Shown here: positions 3,651 to 58,937 of the stretch, in pieces
How positions within the stretch are numbered: the first letter of the stretch is position 1
Layout of the letters: the number at the start of each line of letters is the position of its first letter
Source of the DNA: a bacterium
GTDB lineage: Bacteria > Acidobacteriota > Blastocatellia > HR10
Assembly: GCA_041640655.1 (NCBI GenBank)
Contig: JBEPZV010000012.1
Coordinates: 1-59,667 of the forward strand
Direction: 5' to 3'
DNA length: 59,667 nt
Translations under genes and position numbers: made by a program
Notes under the pieces: model-generated
Told to the model about the DNA's origin: nothing
Databases searched by the model: none
The model's input: the letters and a program-made list of their open reading frames with translations, nothing else

Positions 3651-5051
3651 TCACGCCATCCACTGCAGCAGCAGGGTCGCCAGGCCGAGCATGATCGTCA
3701 CGCTCACGACATCCTGAAAGGCCGTCTCGAACGGACCGGCCGTGATCGCGGGATCAAAGCCCAGGCGCTTGGAAATCATCGGGATGATCGTCCCCACAAA
3801 CCCCGAGAGATTGATGGCCACGAACATCGAGAAGCCGACGACGAATCCGAACACCGGATCGAACCATGTCCCGCGCTCGGCCATGCGCTGCCATCCATGC
3901 CACAGCCCGCCGACGAAGAAGATGAGCGTGCCCAAGATCCCCCCCAAGATGAGCGTCGTCCGCAACTGCCGCGCCACAGGCCGCCACCAATCCTTCAGGC
4001 TGATATGTCCTGTCGCCAACCCCCGCACCACGATCGTCGCCGATTGCAAGCCCGTGTTCCCGGAGATGGCTTGAATGACCGGCATGAACGACGCCAACAG
4101 AATGACCGTCCCCAACGTATCATCGAACCGGTGGATGACCGCCCCGGCGATCAATTCGATGACAACGGTGATGAGGAGCCAGGGCAGGCGCAGCCGCGCG
4201 ATCTCCGCCGGCGTCCGCCGCTCCAGCTCCGCCGCGTCCGATCCCACCATGCGGAAGTAATCCTCGGTCAGCTCCTCTTGCAAGACGTCAATCACATCGT
4301 CCACGGTCACGATCCCGACGAGCCGGTTCTCGTCATCCACCACGGGGACGGCCATGAGGTCGTACTTGGAGACGACGCGCGCGACCTCCTCCTGATCCGT
4401 GCTCGTGTGCACGCTGATGACATCCGTGGACATGATCTTGCGCAGCGGCGTGCTCGGGGGATTGAGCAGAAGCTGGCGCAAGCTCACGACGCCGACCAAA
4501 TGATGCCGATCGTCCACGACGTAGAGGTAGAAGACCATCTCCAGCTCATCGCTCTTACGCTGCAAGGTGGAGATGGCCTCGCCGACGGTCATGTCCTCGT
4601 GCAGCGCGAAGACGTGCGGGTTCATGATGCGGCCGGCCGTGTTCTCCTCGAACTGCAACTGATCCACCACATCCACCGACCGCGCCACGTGCATCAATTC
4701 GAGCACGCGCTCGACCAACTCCGGTGGGAGCTTGGAGGTGATCTGCGTGGCATCATCCACGGGGATCTTCTGCAGGAGATCGGCGATCGTCTCCGGCTCC
4801 AGATGCGCCAGAAGCGAGGCCGCTTCCTCGGGCGGCATCTCGCTCAAGGCCGAGGCTACGAAATCCCCATCTTGCTTGAGGAGGGACCGGAGGGCGAACA
4901 GCCGTTCCCCATCGGTGAGGTTCCCGAAGATGACGGCGACGTCGGCCGGACGCATCTTTCGCAGCAAGTTAACGAGATTGGTGCTCGCCCCAATACGCGC
5001 CAACTTGCGCGCCGACTCGATGGCCAAGTCGAGTTTTCGCAGGTACGCCAT
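3651..5051 (-). CDS. mgtE: Magnesium transporter MgtE
   Basis: MgtE_N, a CBS pair (YLYVVD; VPVVD..LVGIVTVDD), TM region RLPWL, GNTGLQS and DPA..GPFETAFQD. Confidence 0.95.
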   Translation of the reverse strand: MAYLRKLDLAIESARKLARIGASTNLVNLLRKMRPADVAVIFGNLTDGERLFALRSLLKQDGDFVASALSEMPPEEAASLLAHLEPETIADLLQKIPVDDATQITSKLPPELVERVLELMHVARSVDVVDQLQFEENTAGRIMNPHVFALHEDMTVGEAISTLQRKSDELEMVFYLYVVDDRHHLVGVVSLRQLLLNPPSTPLRKIMSTDVISVHTSTDQEEVARVVSKYDLMAVPVVDDENRLVGIVTVDDVIDVLQEELTEDYFRMVGSDAAELERRTPAEIARLRLPWLLITVVIELIAGAVIHRFDDTLGTVILLASFMPVIQAISGNTGLQSATIVVRGLATGHISLKDWWRPVARQLRTTLILGGILGTLIFFVGGLWHGWQRMAERGTWFDPVFGFVVGFSMFVAINLSGFVGTIIPMISKRLGFDPAITAGPFETAFQDVVSVTIMLGLATLLLQWMA

Positions 5052-5120
5052 CCTCAGTTGTGCGTCCCCGTCCCGTCATCTTCGCCAAACACCTAAGCAT
5101 GGCAAATCTCCGGCCATTTT

Positions 5121-5504
5121 TCAACGTGAATGCCGGCAGGCGGGGATTTCCCCGAGAGGAGAGTGCCGGGGGCGCCACCGGTGCGCTTCGATGGCCACCT
5201 GATCCTCGCGGAGAAAGACGACGCCCTCCGACTCCAACAGATCGCGCTGCAGCTGTTGCAACCAGAGCGCGCGCCGCCCGATGCTCAAGCGCCCCTCACG
5301 ATCGACCACGCGATGCCAGGGGACGTCGGGCGGACATGCGGCGAGCGCCCACCCCACGACGCGCGCCGAGACGTTCGACCGGCACAGCGCCGCGATCTGA
5401 CCGTATGATGCTACACGCCCGCGCGGGATGCGCCGCACAATGCGATAGATCTCGGCAAAACATCGGCCTCGAGTCTCCTCCCGTGCTCGTCGGGATCGCT
5501 TCAT
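5121..5504 (-). CDS. Alkyltransferase-like protein (ATL; MGMT family DNA-binding domain)
   Basis: IPRGRVASYGQIA HTH; PWHRVV (Trp in place of the MGMT active Cys). Confidence 0.88.
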   Translation of the reverse strand: MKRSRRAREETRGRCFAEIYRIVRRIPRGRVASYGQIAALCRSNVSARVVGWALAACPPDVPWHRVVDREGRLSIGRRALWLQQLQRDLLESEGVVFLREDQVAIEAHRWRPRHSPLGEIPACRHSR

Positions 5505-6591
5505 AGAAATCGCGGCAGGAGACTGTCGGCTTCAGCCGACAGAGGAATGCCGCTCTTGACACCTCCTTCCTCTCGATGCGTAAGGTTCAGTGGGTTGAAA
5601 GAGCTATACGACTGACGGCGATCGTCAAATTGATGCCTGATGAGGCTCAGGCGAAAGCCTTGAGAGACACCATTCGCGCCTGCAACTACGCCGCCACAGT
5701 AGCCCGGGAGCGGAAGGGGTTTAACCGAAAGGCGCTTCACCGGCTCGTCTATCGGGGCATCAGAGACCGCTTCGGACTGCCAGCGCAACTCGCCGTCCAC
5801 GTGATCAGCAAGGTGGTGGAGAGCTACGCGGACAGGCGGAATCGGAACGAACGCCGTGCCTTCAAGGAGCTTGGTGCCGTTCGCTACGATAGCCGTATTC
5901 TCAGCTTGAAATTGAGCCAACGTTTGGTCTCCATCGCCACGCTCCAAGGTCGCCTCAAGATCCCATTCACGGCAGGAGAACGGCAGTTCCGACCCCTCGA
6001 ACGCCCGGTTCGCGAGCTGACCTCCTGGCTGTTCATCCGCAAGGAAGAGTTCTACTTGGCCGTTGTTTGCGAAGTGGACGACCCTGAAACCATAAACCCC
6101 GAAGGCATTCTCGGGGTTGACGTGGGGCAGGTCAACTTGGCCACCGAGAGCACCGGCGAGTGCTTCTCCGGCGAAGCCCTCACGCGGGTCCGTCTGCGCT
6201 ATGCCCAACTCCGGAGACGCCTCCAGAAGCGTGGCACGCAGTCTGCCAAACGTCACCTGCGGAAACTGTCCCGCAAGGAACGAAACTTCACGACGACGAC
6301 CAACCACACCATCGCCCGGCGGCTGGTGGAGAAAGCCCAAAGGCACCGCGCCGCGATTGCCCTCGAAAACCTTAAAGGCATCAGGGCGCGGACAACGGTT
6401 CAAAAGGGAAGGAACAGGAGGTCTCAGTCCGAATTCGTTTGCCGGTCGTGTGGATGCTCCGACCACGCCGACCGGGTGGCGGCGGTGAATATCGCCGCCA
6501 GGGCTGCCGTCAACCAGCCTATTGTCGGGTGGGGTGCGCATCACAACACCTCGCTACGGCAAGCTGTCGGCTTCGGCCGATAGCGGTTGAC
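5505..6591 (+). mobile_element. IS200/IS605-family tnpB-only (IS1341-like) non-autonomous element
   Basis: Related subterminal hairpins CTGTCGGC-TTCA-GCCGACAG (5523-5542) and GCTGTCGGC-TTCG-GCCGATAGC (6563-6584). Left flank TTCAT, right end TTGAC. Guide tetranucleotides GAGA and CAAG fit the IS608-type pairing rule. No tnpA inside. Confidence 0.88.
5576..6583 (+). CDS. tnpB: TnpB RNA-guided endonuclease homolog with an internal in-frame deletion (possibly defective)
   Basis: RuvC motifs GVDVG, ALENL and HADRVAAVNI are present, but only one CxxC. The usual SW.F.QL...VDP..TS.TCxxCG segment is missing between TTVQKG and RNRRSQ. Confidence 0.9.
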   Translation: MRKVQWVERAIRLTAIVKLMPDEAQAKALRDTIRACNYAATVARERKGFNRKALHRLVYRGIRDRFGLPAQLAVHVISKVVESYADRRNRNERRAFKELGAVRYDSRILSLKLSQRLVSIATLQGRLKIPFTAGERQFRPLERPVRELTSWLFIRKEEFYLAVVCEVDDPETINPEGILGVDVGQVNLATESTGECFSGEALTRVRLRYAQLRRRLQKRGTQSAKRHLRKLSRKERNFTTTTNHTIARRLVEKAQRHRAAIALENLKGIRARTTVQKGRNRRSQSEFVCRSCGCSDHADRVAAVNIAARAAVNQPIVGWGAHHNTSLRQAVGFGR

Positions 6592-6611
6592 CTCATGCTC
6601 CGGAACGATGC
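6430..6611 (+). ncRNA. Putative omegaRNA (scaffold over tnpB 3' end and right end, plus about 20-nt guide from the flank)
   Basis: Inferred from established TnpB biology. The right end at 6591 is visible and the guide would be CTCATGCTCCGGAACGATGC (6592-6611). The 5' boundary is a guess. Confidence 0.5.
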
Positions 6612-7078
6612 AAGGATTGCGCGAGCGCGACGATGACATATACCAAGATCACCGCCTCGATGGCATCGAGCGCGCCAATCACAGCCAGAGCCATGCGCGC
6701 CCGCTCCCGAAAGGAAGGTCCGGGCATGGGCTGCCGACGCAAGTGAGCGACTGCGCGCGAGGTCGTGCACGTCAGCTCGTTGGCCATCCACCCGAGCCAA
6801 TGATAGAGGACGACGAGGGCGACGGGCCACAGCGCGAGCACGCCCCGATACAGGAGCGCATAAAGCAGGAGCACCGTGAAATACGCCGCCTCCAGGCGGA
6901 TCAGCCCGGTCAACTGGCCGAGACCGGCGATCTCGCGGGCCGAGAGCGTCGCTTGCGCTCCCGAAGCCAATCGCGCCAGCGCGCGCAGCCGAATCCATCC
7001 GAGCGCGTTCGCGCCCAGACACGCGAGGGTCAGCACGAGCATCACAACCGTCGCTTCTTGAAACACGCCTCTCGCCAT
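6593..7078 (-). CDS. Hypothetical membrane protein (about 4 TM helices)
   Basis: Several hydrophobic segments; ATG at 7078 chosen from ORF 6593..7123. Confidence 0.7.
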   Translation of the reverse strand: MARGVFQEATVVMLVLTLACLGANALGWIRLRALARLASGAQATLSAREIAGLGQLTGLIRLEAAYFTVLLLYALLYRGVLALWPVALVVLYHWLGWMANELTCTTSRAVAHLRRQPMPGPSFRERARMALAVIGALDAIEAVILVYVIVALAQSLHRSGA

Positions 7079-7167
7079 AGGCCAAGTATCATGCCCGAAG
7101 GGATCGGCTGCGGCAAGCTCCAAACGTGCTGCTCTCTTCAGGACCTGAAGAGATTCGGCCCCTACGC

Positions 7168-7197
7168 TTGACGCGAACGTTCGCCGACCACTATAAC
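7168..7197 (+). promoter_or_regulatory. Sigma70-type promoter for the dienelactone hydrolase gene
   Basis: TTGACG-N18-TATAAC. Confidence 0.6.
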
Positions 7198-7241
7198 TTC
7201 ACTTTCGCTGGATGATCCTGGACTCGCGGGAGGGAGTAACG

Positions 7242-12334: not shown

Positions 12335-12409
<75 letters not shown>

Positions 12410-12420
12410 CGGACTTATAG

Positions 12421-12511
12421 AATCGGCGAAGGCTGACTGTCAGAACTCGGGTCCTGACTCGGCCGCCTGAGGCTCGGAATGGGCGGTTGAAAATTTGAGC
12501 CTTCGCCGATT
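12421..12511. repeat. 14-bp perfect inverted repeat in the tRNA-Gly/tRNA-Cys spacer
   Basis: AATCGGCGAAGGCT (12421-12434) and AGCCTTCGCCGATT (12498-12511). Confidence 0.85.
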
Positions 12512-12516
12512 ATAAT
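12487..12516 (+). promoter_or_regulatory. Sigma70 promoter of tRNA-Cys
   Basis: TTGAAA-N18-TATAAT. Confidence 0.6.
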
Positions 12517-12532
12517 TTTGGCCAGAGAAAGA

Positions 12533-12607
12533 GGCGGCGTAGCCAAGTGGTAAGGCGGAGGTCTGCAAAACCTCGATACCTGGGTTCGAATCCCAGCGCC
12601 GCCTCCA
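12533..12607 (+). tRNA. tRNA-Cys (GCA)
   Basis: Anticodon arm GAGGT-CTGCAAA-ACCTC; T-arm CTGGG-TTCGAAT-CCCAG; CCA end. Confidence 0.96.
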
Positions 12608-12659
12608 CTGCAGACTCAGCCCATTCCCCGCCAGCTCGCTCCCCCATGGCGTCACCCTT

Positions 12660-12930
12660 CTGAATGGGTTTCGCGGCCACAAGCCGATCCACCGCTTCCT
12701 GTTCGTCTGCGAAATGGACATATCCCCCCCGGTCATGCGGATCGTGGGGTGGGCCGAGCAGCGTCTTGATGGCCGCTAGGGGAACGCCGCTCTGGGCCAA
12801 CCGCGAAGCGAACGTGTGGCGCAGATCGTGCGGGGTCAGGTCCTCGACCCCCGCCCTCTGGCAGAGTCCCAGAAACGCATGGTGGAAGGCCAAGTAGGAG
12901 ATCGAATGGCCCCCTGAGTCCGCGAATTCC
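12660..12930 (-). pseudogene. Tyrosine integrase C-terminal remnant
   Basis: HDLRHTFAS...LLG, then H-P-T-I-R-M-T in a shifted frame, then YVH; no N-terminal domains; points toward tRNA-Cys. Confidence 0.8.
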
Positions 12931-12944
12931 CGCAATCCAGGACC

Positions 12945-13049
12945 ACGCAGAAATCCCTGATTCCAACTCGACGACAACACCTGATGGCCACTCTGGCGTA
13001 GCCGTTTCACACTAAGACGATCCACCCCTTCATCGGCCGGAATCTTCGC
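12945..13049 (-). pseudogene. DUF5615-like PIN-domain N-terminal fragment
   Basis: KIPADEGVDRLSVKRLRQSGHQVL, then after a frameshift VELESGISA, resembling the family start MxFLADExVD...LR..GH.V...E..PGISD (recalled consensus). Confidence 0.55.
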
Positions 13050-13264
13050 AATGTAATCAGGCGGCAGAATCCGTGTCCGGCCTCTACCTTCACCACCCAT
13101 ACCATCTCGTTCCCCGACCGTCACAGAGGAGCCAATGTTCCATCATGCTGGACGAGCACTCTGCTCCCCAGAAGACCGCTCAAATACAGCGCCAAAGACC
13201 CGGTCATCGGTATAACTGCGCTCCCCATGCTCTTCGGCATCGAGGTGGAGTTCGTCCTCCAGCT

Positions 13265-13757: not shown

Positions 13758-14999
13758 TCAGGATCCCCGGCCTGATGAGGAAATGACGATGGCCCCCAAT
13801 CGTTGGGCGGCCTCCCGAGCTGAAGGGTGGATGACGAACCCAAACAAGACGATCACAGGCGCTCCCACAACATAGGGCCGCAGTTCCTGCACCCGACGGA
13901 CGACGGCTTCAACATCTCGTCCATAAATCCGACTTCGAACCTCCCCGATCACGACGACCTGCTCACCATCGCGCCATCCCTCCCCATAGAGATCAACTTC
14001 GATCTCCTCACCTTCGATCGTGAAGAATCGTCGCTCCAACTCCTTCACGTGAATCCCATAATGGTGCGCCAAATAAGCTGGCGTGACCTCACGAGCTAAG
14101 TCCTCCAGGGTGAACCCGACCACTTCACTCAATCGCCCGACTTGTTGACTCAGCTGGCCGACTTGTTGCACCAAGGAGCGCATGACCTCTTGCATATGGA
14201 CGTACGCTTGGGTCAGCTCTTCCGCACGAGCCTCCATTCGCGCCTGCGCCTCCGTCAATTGCGCCATCGCCTCTTCCAATCGCCCCATTCGCTCATCCGC
14301 CCGCGCCTGCGCTTCCGATAGCCGTGCCATCGCCTCCTCCAGCCGCCCCACCCGTTCCTCCAGCTGCCCCACTCGTTCCTCCGTCCGCGCTTGTGCTTCT
14401 GCCAGCCGTGTCATCGCCTCTTCCAATCGCCCCACCCGCTCCTCCAACCGCCCCACTCGCTCCTCCGTCCGCGCCTGCGCCTCCGCCAGCCGTGCCATCG
14501 CCTCTTCCAATCGCCCCACCCGCTCCTCCAGCTGCCCCACTCGTTCCTCCGTCCGCGCCTGCGCCTCCGCCAGTCGTGCCATCGCCTCTTCCAATCGCCC
14601 CACCCGCTCCTCCAGCTGCCCCACTCGTTCCTCCGTCCGCGCCTGCGCCTCCGCCAGTCGCGCCATCGCCTCTTCCAATCGCCCTACCCGCTCCTCCAAC
14701 CGCCCCACTCGCTCCTCCGTCCGCGCCTGCGCCTCCGCCAGTCGCGCCATCGCCTCTTCCAATCGCCCTACCCGCTCCTCCAACCGCCCCACTCGCTCCT
14801 CCGTCCGCGCCTGTGCCTCCGCCAGGTGCTGAACAGCCTTGGCGATCCTGTCAAGCGAGGCTATGATCTCCTTGACCATTGTCATCAAGCGCTCGAACTC
14901 CCCAGGGAGCGCCAGTAACTCCTCCGTCAGGAGATAGCGGCGCACCTCCTCACGGAACGCCTGATCTGTCCGCAAGAGCTGTAAGAATTCCTCTCTCAT
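13758..14999 (-). CDS. Coiled-coil repeat protein with C-terminal PD-(D/E)xK-like domain (DUF3782-like)
   Basis: N-terminal LLRTDQAFREEVRRYLL, heptad repeats, C-terminal EIEVDLYG...IGEVRS. Confidence 0.8.
   Translation of the reverse strand: MREEFLQLLRTDQAFREEVRRYLLTEELLALPGEFERLMTMVKEIIASLDRIAKAVQHLAEAQARTEERVGRLEERVGRLEEAMARLAEAQARTEERVGRLEERVGRLEEAMARLAEAQARTEERVGQLEERVGRLEEAMARLAEAQARTEERVGQLEERVGRLEEAMARLAEAQARTEERVGRLEERVGRLEEAMTRLAEAQARTEERVGQLEERVGRLEEAMARLSEAQARADERMGRLEEAMAQLTEAQARMEARAEELTQAYVHMQEVMRSLVQQVGQLSQQVGRLSEVVGFTLEDLAREVTPAYLAHHYGIHVKELERRFFTIEGEEIEVDLYGEGWRDGEQVVVIGEVRSRIYGRDVEAVVRRVQELRPYVVGAPVIVLFGFVIHPSAREAAQRLGAIVISSSGRGS
14322..14825 (-). repeat. Six tandem 84-bp in-frame repeats (28 aa, four heptads each)
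   Basis: LAEAQARTEERVG(R/Q)LEERVGRLEEAM(A/T)R six times, followed by degenerate copies. Confidence 0.93.
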
Positions 15000-15072
15000 C
15001 TTCACCGTGATCCCAAACTGGCTCAATTATGGCATGGTGCTCGCATGGTGGGCAATCCCCCCTCGCGTTCGC

Positions 15073-40789: not shown

Positions 40790-42036
40790 GCGAACGTCCG
40801 TACCACGTCGTCCTCGGCATCACCGGCGGGATCGCGGCGTACAAGGCACCGGAGATCCTGCGGCAACTGCAGCAACGGGGCGCTGAGGTGCGCGTCGTCC
40901 TGACGCGCGCGGCGACCCGCTTCATCGGGCGCGTGACGCTGGAGGCACTCTCGCGCCATCCGGTCGTCGTCGAGATGTTCGAGCCGAACGTGAACGTCGC
41001 CGTCCGACACGTGGAGATGGCGCGCTGGGCGGATTTGCTCTTGGTCGCCCCGGCGACAGCACACACCTTGGCGCGCTTCGCGCATGGACTGGCCGATGAC
41101 TTCCTCACGACGCTCTATCTCTCGACGCGCTGCCCAGTGCTCGTCGCCCCGGCCATGGACGCCGAGATGTGGGAGAACGCGGCGACGCAGGAGAACCTCG
41201 CGCGACTGCGGCAGCGCGGCGTCGCCGTCATCCCCCCCGAGCGGGGATATCTCGCCTCGGGGATCGAGGGCGAGGGTCGCCTGGCCGATCCCGAGCAGAT
41301 CGTCGCGCGCGCCCTGGTGATCCTGGCCGCGCGGCCGTACGCCCGTGACTTCGACGGAGAGCATGTCCTCATCACCGCCGGTCCGACCTGCGAGGACCTC
41401 GACCCGATCCGCTATCTGACCAATCGTTCGACGGGCAAAATGGGCTACGCCCTCGCTCACGCGGCGCTGGCGCGCGGCGCGCAGGTGACGCTCATCAGCG
41501 GTCCCACGACGCTCGCTCCCCCTCCCGATGCCCAGGTGATCGTCGTGCGCCGTGCCGAGGAGATGTATCGCGCCGTCCTCGCGCACATGGAGGCGGCCAC
41601 GGTCATCATCAAAGCGGCCGCCGTCGCCGATTATCGTCCCAAGGTGTTCTCCCCCACGAAGCTCAAGAAGACCGACGCCGATCTCACGCTCGCGCTCGAA
41701 CGCACGCCCGATATCCTGGCCGAGGTGGGGCGCCGAAAGGGGGCGCGCCTGCTCGTCGGATTCGCCGCGGAGACCGAAGCCCATCTCGAACACGGGCGAC
41801 AGAAGCTCCTTCAGAAGAATCTCGATCTCATCTTCATCAACGACGCCACGAGCGCGGAGACGGGATTCGCGGCCGACGAGAATGCCGGCTTCCTCATGGA
41901 TCGCGAGGGCGACGTCGTAGAGGTGCCGAAGATGTCCAAGTACGAGCTGGCCATGCGTCTGCTCGATCGCGTGCGCGAGCTGCTCGCCCGGCGCCGCGTG
42001 GACGCTGATCGCGAGCGCGCGGAGGAACGGCGATGA
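40786..42036 (+). CDS. coaBC: Phosphopantothenoylcysteine decarboxylase/synthetase
   Basis: GGIAAYK, APAM, TAGPT.E..D..R..TN.STGKMG, AAVADY and GFAAET motifs. Confidence 0.95.
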   Translation: MSERPYHVVLGITGGIAAYKAPEILRQLQQRGAEVRVVLTRAATRFIGRVTLEALSRHPVVVEMFEPNVNVAVRHVEMARWADLLLVAPATAHTLARFAHGLADDFLTTLYLSTRCPVLVAPAMDAEMWENAATQENLARLRQRGVAVIPPERGYLASGIEGEGRLADPEQIVARALVILAARPYARDFDGEHVLITAGPTCEDLDPIRYLTNRSTGKMGYALAHAALARGAQVTLISGPTTLAPPPDAQVIVVRRAEEMYRAVLAHMEAATVIIKAAAVADYRPKVFSPTKLKKTDADLTLALERTPDILAEVGRRKGARLLVGFAAETEAHLEHGRQKLLQKNLDLIFINDATSAETGFAADENAGFLMDREGDVVEVPKMSKYELAMRLLDRVRELLARRRVDADRERAEERR

Positions 42037-42971
42037 ACGATGTCCGCGAGGAGGTCCGGTCCCGCCTGCTCGAGCTGATTCGAGACGTCCGCGAGCATCT
42101 CCGGTATCTCGGGGAGCTGGGCGTGACGCACTGGGAGGACCTTCCGGCCGCGGACGATCTTCACGAAGATGTCTGCGCGCCCGCGGTCTTGGAGAAGATT
42201 GGCGAGCAGCTCTCCGAATCGCGCGCCGAAGCGGCGCGCGTTCAGGACGCGCCCGATGAAGAGACCCGCAAGGAGGGAGAACCCATGACGAGCAAGCGAC
42301 GCTCAGCGCGTTCGGCCGCCGCATCGTCCGAACGCGCGTCGGAACAACCGGCGCTCTTTGGCGACCTCCCCCTGCTCCGGACAGTGCCGATGACCGAAGA
42401 TCGCACGCTGGAGGAGATTCGCGCCGATGTGGGCGACTGCACGCGCTGCAAACTGCATCGGTCGCGCACGACGATCGTCTTCGGCGAAGGCGATCCGCGC
42501 GCGCGCATCATGTTCGTCGGCGAGGGGCCGGGAGCGGAAGAGGATGCTCAGGGACGCCCCTTCGTCGGCCGCGCGGGACAGTTGCTCAACCGCATGATCG
42601 AAGCCATGGGATTTCGGCGCGAGGAGGTCTATATCACCAACGTCGTCATGTGCCGCCCGCCGAACAATCGCACGCCCGAACCTGATGAGATCGCGACCTG
42701 CGAACCGTTCCTCTTCCGGAAGATCCGCGTGATCCGACCCGATGTCGTCGTCGCCCTTGGGGCGATCGCCGCGCAGTCGCTGCTGGGGACGAAAGCCCCC
42801 ATCGGACAGATCCGCGGACGATTCTTCGAGGCGCACGGGACGAAGGTCATGCCCACCTTCCATCCCGCCTTCCTGCTGCGCGCGCCCGAGAGGAAACGCG
42901 AGGCGTGGGAGGACTTGCGCAAGGTGCGGGATTACGTCCTGAGCCTCTCGCGGGAGAGAGCGTCGCGGTGA
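42033..42971 (+). CDS. Family 4 uracil-DNA glycosylase with N-terminal extension
   Basis: CTRCKL, GEGPG.EED..G.PFVG, CRPP.NR and HPA motifs. Confidence 0.92.
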   Translation: MNDVREEVRSRLLELIRDVREHLRYLGELGVTHWEDLPAADDLHEDVCAPAVLEKIGEQLSESRAEAARVQDAPDEETRKEGEPMTSKRRSARSAAASSERASEQPALFGDLPLLRTVPMTEDRTLEEIRADVGDCTRCKLHRSRTTIVFGEGDPRARIMFVGEGPGAEEDAQGRPFVGRAGQLLNRMIEAMGFRREEVYITNVVMCRPPNNRTPEPDEIATCEPFLFRKIRVIRPDVVVALGAIAAQSLLGTKAPIGQIRGRFFEAHGTKVMPTFHPAFLLRAPERKREAWEDLRKVRDYVLSLSRERASR

Positions 42972-58163: not shown

Positions 58164-58934
58164 TCAAGACACGGACTCGCTCACCGTCATTTCGCACGGC
58201 ACGGAGGTGACACCGGCCATATCGAGCAGCTCGCGGGCGCGGCGGAAGATCGTCTCGAACATCGGTTCGGTGAGCCTCCCCGTGAAGGTGTTCTGCTGGC
58301 TCGGATGGAATGAGGCGAGCAGCGTCAGCGTCGGTGTCAGTGCCAGCTCCAGTCCGTGCCGGAAGCGTGGACGCGCGCCCGGCCTCTTCGCCTCCGGTGG
58401 ACGCAGAGTGCTGGTCGTGCGAAGCACGGTCAGATACGCGATCTGTCCCAAGGCGACGACGACGCGCACGCTTTTGAGAAGCGCCCACTCGCGCTCGAGG
58501 AAGATGCGGCAGTTCCGCAGCTCCTCAGTCTGCGGCTTATTCTGCGGGGGCGCGCAGCGAAGGGCGGCGGTGATGTAACAGTCGCGAAGTCGGAGACCGT
58601 CCTCGCGATGTCGGGATTCGGGACGATCGGCGAAACCGAAGCGATGGAGCACGCGATAGAGCCATTCTCCGCTCCGATCACCCGTGAACATGCGCCCGGT
58701 GCGATTCGCCCCATGAGCCGCCGGGGCCAATCCCACAATGAGGAGGCGGGCGTGAGGGTCTCCGAATCCGGGGACGGGTTTAGACCAGTACTCCCACTCG
58801 CGATATCGTCGGGGCTTGTGGCGCGCGACCTCTTCTCGCCATGCTACGAGGCGGGGACAGCGGCGACACGCCACGATCTCCGCTTGAAGCTCGGCGAGCT
58901 TCTGCTCCACCAGCGAAGCGCACGCTTCCATCAC
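58164..58934 (-). CDS. udgB: Family 5 uracil-DNA glycosylase
   Basis: CRRCPRL, GLAPAAHGANRTGRMFTGD, CAPP.NKP and HPSQQN motifs. Confidence 0.92.
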   Translation of the reverse strand: MMEACASLVEQKLAELQAEIVACRRCPRLVAWREEVARHKPRRYREWEYWSKPVPGFGDPHARLLIVGLAPAAHGANRTGRMFTGDRSGEWLYRVLHRFGFADRPESRHREDGLRLRDCYITAALRCAPPQNKPQTEELRNCRIFLEREWALLKSVRVVVALGQIAYLTVLRTTSTLRPPEAKRPGARPRFRHGLELALTPTLTLLASFHPSQQNTFTGRLTEPMFETIFRRARELLDMAGVTSVPCEMTVSESVS

Positions 58935-58937
58935 CGT

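Follow-up and report, generated by a model that had tools for sequence, protein, structure and literature searches.

Can the ends, the target motif and the nominal guide of a tnpB-only element be read from a single copy by the IS608 rule? At the locus considered here, in what is probably a hot-spring acidobacterium, they can, and support for the rule comes in this case from covariation that occurs naturally among relatives in both bacteria and archaea. According to our analysis, positions 5505..6591 (+ strand, 1087 bp) of the window, i.e. the whole stretch of 59,667 nt that was analysed, very probably represent a degenerate, non-autonomous member of the IS200/IS605 family with tnpB-only organisation, inserted 3' of TCAT at a point where two co-directional - strand genes lie 1 nt apart. 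We refer to this organisation as IS1341-type, following ISfinder usage. The element illustrates biology that is already known; no new system is involved, and the window copy itself, a dead representative of an established type of element, is of little significance.

Insertion site and architecture of the ends

The gene on the left (5121..5504, - strand) encodes a protein of 127 aa with an MGMT/ATL-like DNA-binding domain (Pfam DNA_binding_1, 1.8e-21); its matches to the NCBIfam ogt models were weak and all below the cut-off. The ATG of this gene, being the complement of 5502-5504, is overlapped by the left TCAT. On the right lies an ORF of 176 aa (6593..7123, - strand), whose stop codon is the complement of 6593-6595 and for which family searches against Pfam and NCBIfam gave no match. 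The G+C content is ~64%. Inspection by eye revealed that the left flank ends in TTCAT and the right flank begins with CTCATG, so that TCAT recurs at 6593-6596 with an offset of 1 nt and there is no clean duplication; by the same inspection, the first and the last 18 nt of the element are not reverse complements.

The left hairpin (IPL; 5523..5542, + strand; CTGTCGGCTTCAGCCGACAG) consists of an 8-bp stem and a 4-nt loop. The four nucleotides 5' of its foot, GAGA (5519..5522, + strand), constitute the left DNA guide (GL) under the IS608 rule, and the left cleavage or target site (CL) would be TCAT (5501-5504) outside the element, which, preceded by T5500, forms the flank motif TTCAT (5500..5504, + strand) and which we infer to be the TAM. 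Similarly, the right guide (GR), CAAG (6560..6563, + strand), precedes the right hairpin (IPR; 6564..6583, + strand; CTGTCGGCTTCGGCCGATAG), whose 8 bp include one G.T and covary across 48 relatives. The right cleavage site (CR), TGAC (6588..6591, + strand), makes up the final 4 nt of the element and ends 8 nt past the hairpin foot. Both guides and the right site are read directly from the DNA. Re-reading of the sequence located all of these features where the earlier note had placed them; the right hairpin had been given there as 6563-6584, which is the 6564-6583 core extended by one more G-C pair.

The two hairpins share one strand and agree in 18 of their 20 positions. Within the 59.7 kb, a degenerate version of the hairpin 20-mer occurs on the + strand at these two places only, the one further match being the palindromic - strand reading of the left hairpin, and none of 100 shuffled sequences reached at least three matches. 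The left end of the element starts ~100 nt before tnpB and its hairpin stops ~60 nt before the gene. In the minimum-energy fold of the single-stranded DNA, the left hairpin is present (z = -3.9) as part of a larger structure (5512..5554, + strand), in which an outer stem (5512-5517/5549-5554) surrounds a 5x5 internal loop, with GGAGA (5518-5522) opposite AGGAA (5543-5547), and the inner hairpin. In 28 relatives this outer stem is paired at 137 of 168 positions, compared with 57-84 of 168 for shifted partners, and several types of pair occur at every position. For the right end, folding of a 66-nt context gave a competing structure as the energy minimum (z = -1.3), and the right hairpin is therefore without support from energy alone.

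The pairing rule put forward in the earlier note, i.e. guide position 1 with site position 2, guide 2 with site 1 and guide 4 with site 4, agrees with the literature on IS608 of Helicobacter pylori. Like the present element, IS608 has its subterminal hairpins on a single strand and, 5' of each foot, a DNA guide of 4 nt; shared, too, are the crossed 1-2, 2-1, 4-4 pairing, a left site outside and a right site inside the element, and insertion 3' of a tetranucleotide. IS608 combines GL AAAG with CL TTAC and GR GAAT with CR TCAA (including the pairs A+16:T-3 and A+17:T-4), whereas TCAT and TGAC are found here with GAGA and CAAG, and the distances from CL to the hairpin foot and from the foot to CR are 18 and 8 nt here versus 19 and 10 nt in IS608. 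Unlike IS608, the element is devoid of tnpA, and an extra outer stem encloses the left hairpin together with its guide.

At a G+C content of ~64%, we estimated a chance probability of ~0.09 for TCNT in one of nine allowed spacings, of ~0.055 for TGNC in one of three offsets and of ~0.005 for both. As G+C-rich stem-loops beside gene ends, the hairpins might also be viewed as ordinary intergenic structures, such as terminators or REP-like repeats, that happen to surround a tnpB pseudogene. Yet neither hairpin is followed by a T run, and in several phyla as well as in archaea, tnpB is surrounded by hairpins at the same positions with conserved 5' tetranucleotides and covarying stems. We consider an origin as ordinary intergenic structures, which the family comparison contradicts, to be extremely unlikely and treat the hairpins below as transposon ends.

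Guide and site covariation across relatives

The comparison set comprised 80 related loci (81 sequences with the window), the window's own genome not being among them. The ends in relatives were located by motif-anchored searches; a stricter hairpin matcher had matched just 4 of the 81 sequences. The strict left-end motif was present in 28 of the 81 sequences, and in all 28 of these left ends TC[A/T]N sits 13-21 nt upstream of the guide. Guide base 4 is complementary to site base 4 in 26 of the 28 (A:T 14, G:C 11, T:A 1), and in 18 of 19 if only loci with a single candidate site are considered. Permutation gave p < 1e-5 for this covariation at position 4. The two misfits are L039, in which the guide has A and the flank reads TCAC, and L059, for which the register is doubtful. 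Relaxed left-end detection added 13 loci, including L006, L049 and L068, regarded as spurious, and L020 and L041 with ambiguous sites. The third base of the left guide varies among the 28 relatives (A 12, G 10, T 5, C 1); in IS608, an A of each guide inserts into TnpA.

Right ends were called in 60 cases, and the predicted site followed the hairpin in 48 of them, whereas control windows matched in 14 of 240 cases; the fitting relatives comprise 43 in which TGNC comes after CAAG and five in which TTNC comes after AAAG. Most of the 12 misfits are hairpins at implausible distances, and L005 combines GAAG with TTAC, which is compatible by G.T wobble only. Within elements, the combination of GA/TC on the left with CA/TG on the right fits crossed but not parallel pairing. 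On a FastTree tree, the site changed together with the guide in all 4 independent pairs at the right end and, averaged over 200 pairings, in 3.9 of 4 at the left end, with none in the opposite direction; taken singly, neither test is significant (p = 0.125 each).

The closest relative with DNA compared (L001; protein 69% identical) provides a separate view of the boundaries. Alignment with this locus yielded 63 of 70 identical positions directly inside the left boundary versus 19 of 45 directly outside, and 34 of 47 inside the right boundary versus 15 of 33 (plus gaps) outside, such that similarity starts and stops within a base of 5505 and 6591. Its left flank ends in TCTT, consistent with TCNT. 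The boundaries 5505-6591, which the earlier note had derived from the pairing rule, are thus supported at the sequence level by two independent lines, the alignment and the covariation of guides and sites.

A genuine IS200/IS605 element with other boundaries, in which TCAT and TGAC match by chance and cleavage occurs elsewhere, has to be weighed against this reading. Spacing between TAM or TEM and guide is flexible and alternative boundaries are used according to published work; in the relatives, too, the spacing ranges from 13 to 21 nt, and a second TCAT lies just beyond the right end. Against such a shift stand the limits of similarity to the closest relative, the right end in TGAC, found at a fixed offset from the hairpin in 48 relatives, and the fit of the position-4 covariation, and we regard other boundaries as quite unlikely. 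The earlier note had proposed (T)TCAT, of which TCAT, presumably acting as TAM, is supported by the relatives but the leading T is not: among the 28, the base 5' of the site is T in 14, C in eight and A in six, and never G.

The tnpB gene and its putative RNA scaffold

The tnpB ORF (5576..6583, + strand) encodes 335 aa and is decayed. Pfam OrfB_IS605 passes its cut-off (2e-9), whereas the TNB domain is partial and below its own. The NCBIfam model NF040570 gave 101.3 bits (cut-off 100) in two stretches covering profile positions 4-313 of 389, compared with 196.9 bits over positions 4-389 for P0002 (379 aa), which is, together with P0003 (384 aa), one of the closest intact siblings. An ATA is found at 5606-5608, where relatives have their start ATG, the closest relative by DNA included. 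In addition, an in-frame deletion of 48 residues, with its junction near 6409/6410 between E264 and the second CxxC, takes out RuvC core strands and the first CxxC, along with columns whose conservation in the family reaches 90% or more. What the window protein retains are the RuvC residues D182, E264 and D299 and the second CxxC, and it thereby lacks the combination of an intact RuvC fold with D-E-D triad and a CxxC...CxxC zinc finger. The gene is dead or crippled and its product most likely not a nuclease. Since tnpB of the closest relative is independently frameshifted, decay is common in the lineage.

Within its final ~115 nt, the element contains covarying helices of the type seen in omegaRNA scaffolds. 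The helices predicted in the window copy (6477..6560, + strand) comprise a hairpin at 6477-6485/6492-6500, a second one at 6502-6506/6515-6519 and a stem at 6524-6530/6553-6560; every scaffold helix is present. RNAalifold, applied to 48 right ends, predicted 21 pairs, 18 of them with compensatory changes. Scaffold cells were paired at 91.4%, versus 37-45% with slid partners, and the covariation score of 0.635 was reached by 0 of 500 shuffles, controls scoring at most 0.159. In a per-sequence test, the first scaffold hairpin had at least 5 bp in 28 of 47 sequences versus 26 of 185 control positions. These data support a structured, RNA-like scaffold that would span the right end and overlap the 3' end of tnpB. 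The first scaffold hairpin surrounds the N-I codons. A search of Rfam over positions 5000-7200 at E <= 1 matched no family, and over the whole window it returned three tRNAs only.

An omegaRNA reading through the right end would carry the adjoining flank as guide, for which we list 6592..6611 (+ strand), the length of 20 nt being arbitrary. As the tnpB gene is broken in this copy, a point which the earlier note had half acknowledged, the guide read in that note is nominal. Within the window the 20-nt flank is unique at up to three mismatches.

The intact scaffold, an open frame of 335 codons despite the deletion and the retained D182, E264, D299 and second CxxC might also suggest that the shortened protein has been domesticated as a nuclease-dead, RNA-guided DNA binder of regulatory function with conserved scaffold and fixed guide, similar to the published TnpB derivatives of TldR type. 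However, this proposal has to cope with an ancestral start codon now reading ATA, with the loss of strongly conserved columns including the first CxxC, with a flank that has no second match in the window, with independent decay in the nearest sibling and with the restriction of the exact protein to one contig without any mates in a 90% cluster. Moreover, both transposon ends are intact, and such ends are usually lost in domesticated forms. We rate domestication as highly unlikely and continue to view tnpB as a decayed transposon gene.

TnpB of ISDra2 from Deinococcus radiodurans belongs to the same protein family, and its RNA scaffold likewise overlaps the 3' end of tnpB and the right end of the element. 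Differences concern the TAM, TTGAT in ISDra2 as opposed to the predicted TCAT, and the integrity of the gene, which is broken here. In ISGst elements of Geobacillus stearothermophilus, according to the preprint by Meers et al. 2023, the sequence targeted by TnpA also serves as the TAM, the ends are set by TEM and DNA guides, and the empty donor joint is what the nucleases cut; ISGst5 has TTCAT as its wild-type TAM, and the TEM of ISGst2 reads TTCAC. TTCAT is therefore not new as a TAM, ISGst5 being an element that encodes IscB and not TnpB. The ISGst elements are intact and experimentally tested, in contrast to the decayed element of the window, known from its sequence. A literature search of main texts yielded no report joining TnpB, TAM and TCAT; existing TAM catalogues may include TCAT for certain TnpB proteins.

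Mobility and proposed mechanism

Among the 49 window ORFs of at least 90 aa and 60 gap ORFs, none matched PF01797 (Y1 tnpA), and four TnpA proteins from related loci found no match in the window by tblastn at E <= 1e-3. Of the tnpA in trans envisaged by the earlier note, the window is thus devoid, but an adjacent Y1 transposase is present in four relatives (L030, L049, L078 and L080), which indicates that the clade is mobilised by TnpA. The count of 16 loci obtained by tblastn overstates the true tnpA neighbours, as the TnpA ORF of L078 also matched tnpB in antisense in actinobacterial loci. Absence of tnpA from the window fits a non-autonomous, tnpB-only element, and like other IS1341-type elements and PATE-like non-autonomous derivatives, which have no tnpA between their ends, it would need TnpA in trans. 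The ends appear intact and could be moved in this way.

Extrapolating from work on IS608, ISDra2 and ISGst elements, we propose that a Y1 (HUH) TnpA supplied in trans would bind both hairpins in single-stranded DNA of the + (top) strand, where GAGA would pair with TCAT in the flank and CAAG with TGAC at the terminus. Having left as a single-stranded circle, the element would re-insert on the 3' side of a further TCAT. In relatives that are intact, an omegaRNA extending from the 3' end of tnpB through the position equivalent to 6591 would use the adjacent flank as guide, and TnpB, reading the same TCAT motif as TAM, would cleave the empty donor joint (TCAT together with the flank behind it that matches the guide), whereupon recombination would restore the element.

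A TnpB residue that tracks the last TAM base

The practical value of the locus lies in its intact siblings P0002 and P0003 and in the TCAT, TCAC and TCAA subclades, which represent candidate compact nucleases with predictable TAMs and offer a candidate single-residue TAM determinant. Across the clade, residue 55 of TnpB (numbering of the window ORF; motif L-[H/Q]-x-x-x-Y) is His or Gln and tracks the last base of the predicted TAM. In all 19 loci with His55, guide position 4 is A, which corresponds to a predicted TAM with final T; among the loci with Gln55, this position is G in 16 (final TAM base C) and T in two (final TAM base A).

In ISDra2, Y52 and S56 of the REC domain contact the last TAM base, and K76 is found at +24 from Y52. 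The i/i+4 pair Y52/S56 resembles positions 55/59 of the present family, and K76 resembles the near-invariant K79, likewise at +24, a spacing from which residue 55 may be equivalent to Y52. The N-terminal 135 residues had no sequence match to solved TnpB, producing chance hits only (E >= 0.29); full-length P0002 matches solved TnpB/Cas12f chains from about residue 136, i.e. in the C-terminal RuvC/TNB part. It is possible, if rather doubtful, that a single residue of a REC helix, residue 55, acts as a naturally occurring switch that sets the final TAM base, having co-evolved three ways with the DNA guide of TnpA and the target site. Were residue 55 causal, exchange of this one residue between His and Gln would switch the TAM from TCAT to TCAC or back. 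On the tree the residue changes six times, and in all 4 independent pairs it changed in step with the guide; in L039, where the flank disagrees with the guide, residue 55 is the one that the guide predicts.

Ends and insertion site of the element

At the left end of the tnpB-only insertion, all on the + strand, the tetranucleotide TCAT (5501-5504, preceded by T5500) is followed by the guide GAGA (5519-5522) and a hairpin with an 8-bp stem and a 4-nt loop (5523-5542). At the right end, the guide CAAG (6560-6563) precedes a nearly identical hairpin (6564-6583) and the site TGAC (6588-6591). We found every feature listed in the earlier note at the coordinates it gave, the right hairpin being drawn there with one further pair (6563-6584). 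The hairpin 20-mer is confined to the two ends within the window, and its count was reached in 0 of 100 shuffles. The left hairpin forms part of the lowest-energy ssDNA structure (z = -3.9); the right one is outcompeted by another ssDNA fold (z = -1.3).

In IS608, the left cleavage site TTAC lies 19 nt 5' of the hairpin foot and the right site TCAA 10 nt 3' of it; the guides AAAG (left) and GAAT (right) are the 4 nt directly 5' of each foot, with pairs A+16:T-3 and A+17:T-4 (passages on IS608 in He et al. 2011, PMC3201880, and Morero et al. 2018, PMC5934647). The crossed guide-site pairing proposed for the window element is the pattern described in these passages; the site-to-foot spacing is 18 and 8 nt, as against 19 and 10 nt in IS608. 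An outer stem (5512-5517/5549-5554) encloses the left guide and hairpin, leaving a 5x5 internal loop (GGAGA/AGGAA). It covaries in 28 relatives, with 137 of 168 positions paired versus 57-84 of 168 with shifted partners. The same IS608 passages contain no description of such a stem.

The proposed limits, 5505-6591, were borne out by comparison with L001, the closest DNA relative, which stems from a Chloroflexota MAG (69% protein identity to the window TnpB). The alignment spans AGAAA at 5505 through GTTGAC at 6591. Identity is 63/70 immediately inside the left boundary versus 19/45 immediately outside, and 34/47 inside the right boundary versus 15/33 (plus gaps) outside. The left flank of L001 ends in TCTT, compatible with TCNT. 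In its right hairpin, T-A of the window is replaced by C-G, a compensatory change.

Flanking the element are, to its left, the ATG of an MGMT/ATL-like gene (complement 5502-5504) and, to its right, the stop codon of a 176-aa ORF (complement 6593-6595). Without 5505-6591, stop and start would be separated by one base (1-nt gap, - strand), and a GGAG (complement 6598-6601), likely a Shine-Dalgarno sequence, would lie 6 nt ahead of the ATG. With the element in place, this GGAG is about 1.1 kb away from the start of the ATL-like gene; the insertion probably split the gene from its ribosome-binding site. A further TCAT occurs at 6593-6596, beyond the right end.

Covariation of guides and sites

A contig profile scan using a 12-sequence TnpB alignment yielded 80 related loci from Chloroflexota, Deinococcota, Actinomycetota, Planctomycetota, methanogens and others. 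To find left ends, we looked for a GGA-NN-hairpin-AG[G/A]A motif 50-85 nt upstream of tnpB and recovered this architecture from 28 of the 81 sequences formed by the 80 loci and the window. Each of these 28 has a guide that starts with GA, and a TC[A/T]N 13-21 nt upstream. With the site picked as the candidate closest to 15 nt, ignoring its fourth base, guide base 4 complements site base 4 in 26/28 cases (A:T 14, G:C 11, T:A 1), as it does at 18 of the 19 loci with a single candidate site. Permuting the guides gave p < 1e-5 for the left-end covariation, all covariation counts being inflated by relatedness of the loci.

The left-end misfits are L039 and L059. In L039, the GATA guide and a His at residue 55 (see below) both predict TCAT, but the flank has TCAC twice, which may reflect off-target insertion or later mutation of the flank. 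L020 shows a tandem 6-nt duplication between TCAC and the end, giving a spacing of 20 nt, not 14. A closer TCAT exists there but would misfit the guide, and the Gln aligned with residue 55 points to TCAC as the real site.

At the right ends, NAAG followed by a hairpin could be called in 60 of the 81 sequences. The guide-predicted site lies 3-5 nt past the hairpin in 48/60 calls, versus 14/240 control windows (CAAG with TGNC at 43 loci, AAAG with TTNC at five). The 12 misfits are mostly hairpins at implausible distances; L005 has GAAG with TTAC (wobble pairing), and the L024 call is in the wrong register. Per element, left GA/TC and right CA/TG match crossed, not parallel, pairing. On a FastTree tree (79 rows), the site tracks the guide in 3.9 of 4 independent pairs at the left end and in 4 of 4 at the right, with none opposite (p = 0.125 each); by our own reckoning, 8 of 8 pooled pairs agree.

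The right-hairpin stems of L002 and L008 match the left-hairpin stem of the window exactly. Their TnpBs are just ~40-49% identical to the window's family and their left hairpins differ, which suggests that TnpA recognition hairpins are shared or exchanged between diverged tnpB elements.

The predicted TAM and its putative reader

The TAM had been read as (T)TCAT. The base 5' of the left tetranucleotide varies (T 14, C 8, A 6, G 0), so TCAT is supported and the leading T is not. The window element represents standard IS200/IS605 and TnpB biology. In the Meers et al. 2023 preprint, the TAM is equated with the TnpA target, TTCAC is a transposon-end motif, and spacing from motifs to guides is flexible. 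The wild-type TAM of ISGst5 given there is also TTCAT, but ISGst5 carries IscB, whereas the window element encodes TnpB. In the article texts searched, we found no TnpB paired with a TCAT TAM.

Residue 55 of the window ORF (motif L-[H/Q]-x-x-x-Y; codon 5738-5740, +) is His wherever guide base 4 is A, predicting a TAM ending in T (19/19 loci). It is Gln with guide G (TAM ending in C) in 16 loci and with guide T (ending in A) in two; the exception is L009, with Gly. Residue 55 tracks the guide in 4/4 independent tree pairs. In ISDra2, the REC residues Y52 and S56 contact the last TAM base, which makes a reader role plausible for residue 55; it may read this base.

Decay and mobility

ORF 5576-6583 (+) encodes a TnpB (Pfam OrfB_IS605, 2e-9; TNB domain partial; NCBIfam NF040570, 101.3 bits at a cut-off of 100). 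Alignment to P0002 (379 aa, 65% identical) and P0003 (384 aa), both full-length siblings, shows that the gene is decayed: 48 residues are absent between TTVQKG and RNRRSQSEF, taking out the first CxxC and many columns at least 90% conserved. D182, E264, D299 and the second CxxC are retained. ATA at 5606-5608 aligns with the sibling start Met and is ATG in L001, whose own tnpB is frameshifted.

The earlier note called for a trans-acting tnpA. Within the window we detected no Y1 transposase, either by Pfam (49 ORFs and 60 gap ORFs) or by tblastn, for which four TnpAs encoded at related loci served as queries. As tnpA adjoins tnpB in some relatives (L030, L049, L078 and L080), the clade appears TnpA-mobilised and the window copy non-autonomous.

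A putative omegaRNA scaffold

For the final 180 nt of 48 aligned elements, RNAalifold predicted 21 pairs, 18 with compensatory changes. In this structure 91.4% of cells pair, versus 37-45% with partners slid by 1-3 columns, and the covariation score is 0.635, a value reached in 0/500 shuffles, versus at most 0.159 for slid partners. The helices of this putative omegaRNA scaffold map to 6502-6506/6515-6519, 6524-6530/6553-6560 and the right hairpin (6564-6583), all +. A per-sequence test added a hairpin at 6477-6485/6492-6500 (+), with at least 5 bp in 28/47 sequences versus 26/185 control positions. Two scaffold helices fall within conserved codons of tnpB, a common trait of omegaRNAs, and both are downstream of the 48-codon deletion. 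Rfam contained no family matching the right-end RNA (5000-7200 searched).

Host and other features

The IVYWREL fraction is 0.454 over 38 ORFs, a value that by the IVYWREL formula points to a high growth temperature and that high G+C may inflate. The window's CoaBC and its counterpart in 'bacterium HR10' share 96% identity, and HR10 is, in GTDB, a Blastocatellia order that includes the hot-spring GAL08 clade (PMC8787282). From this kinship and the IVYWREL fraction, the earlier description of the host as a probable thermophile is reasonable.

Low third-position G+C marks the ORFs at 12.1-13.9 kb, and 12335-13142 is probably an integrated-element remnant. There, tRNA-Gly and tRNA-Cys adjoin a phage-type integrase fragment (12510-13142, -; Pfam 1.9e-11, covering only profile positions 101-155 of 172). 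A 422-aa ORF (13758-15026, -) has only many weak coiled-coil-type Pfam matches. The window also carries two separate ORFs of the uracil-DNA-glycosylase superfamily (42033-42971, +; 58164-58937, -).
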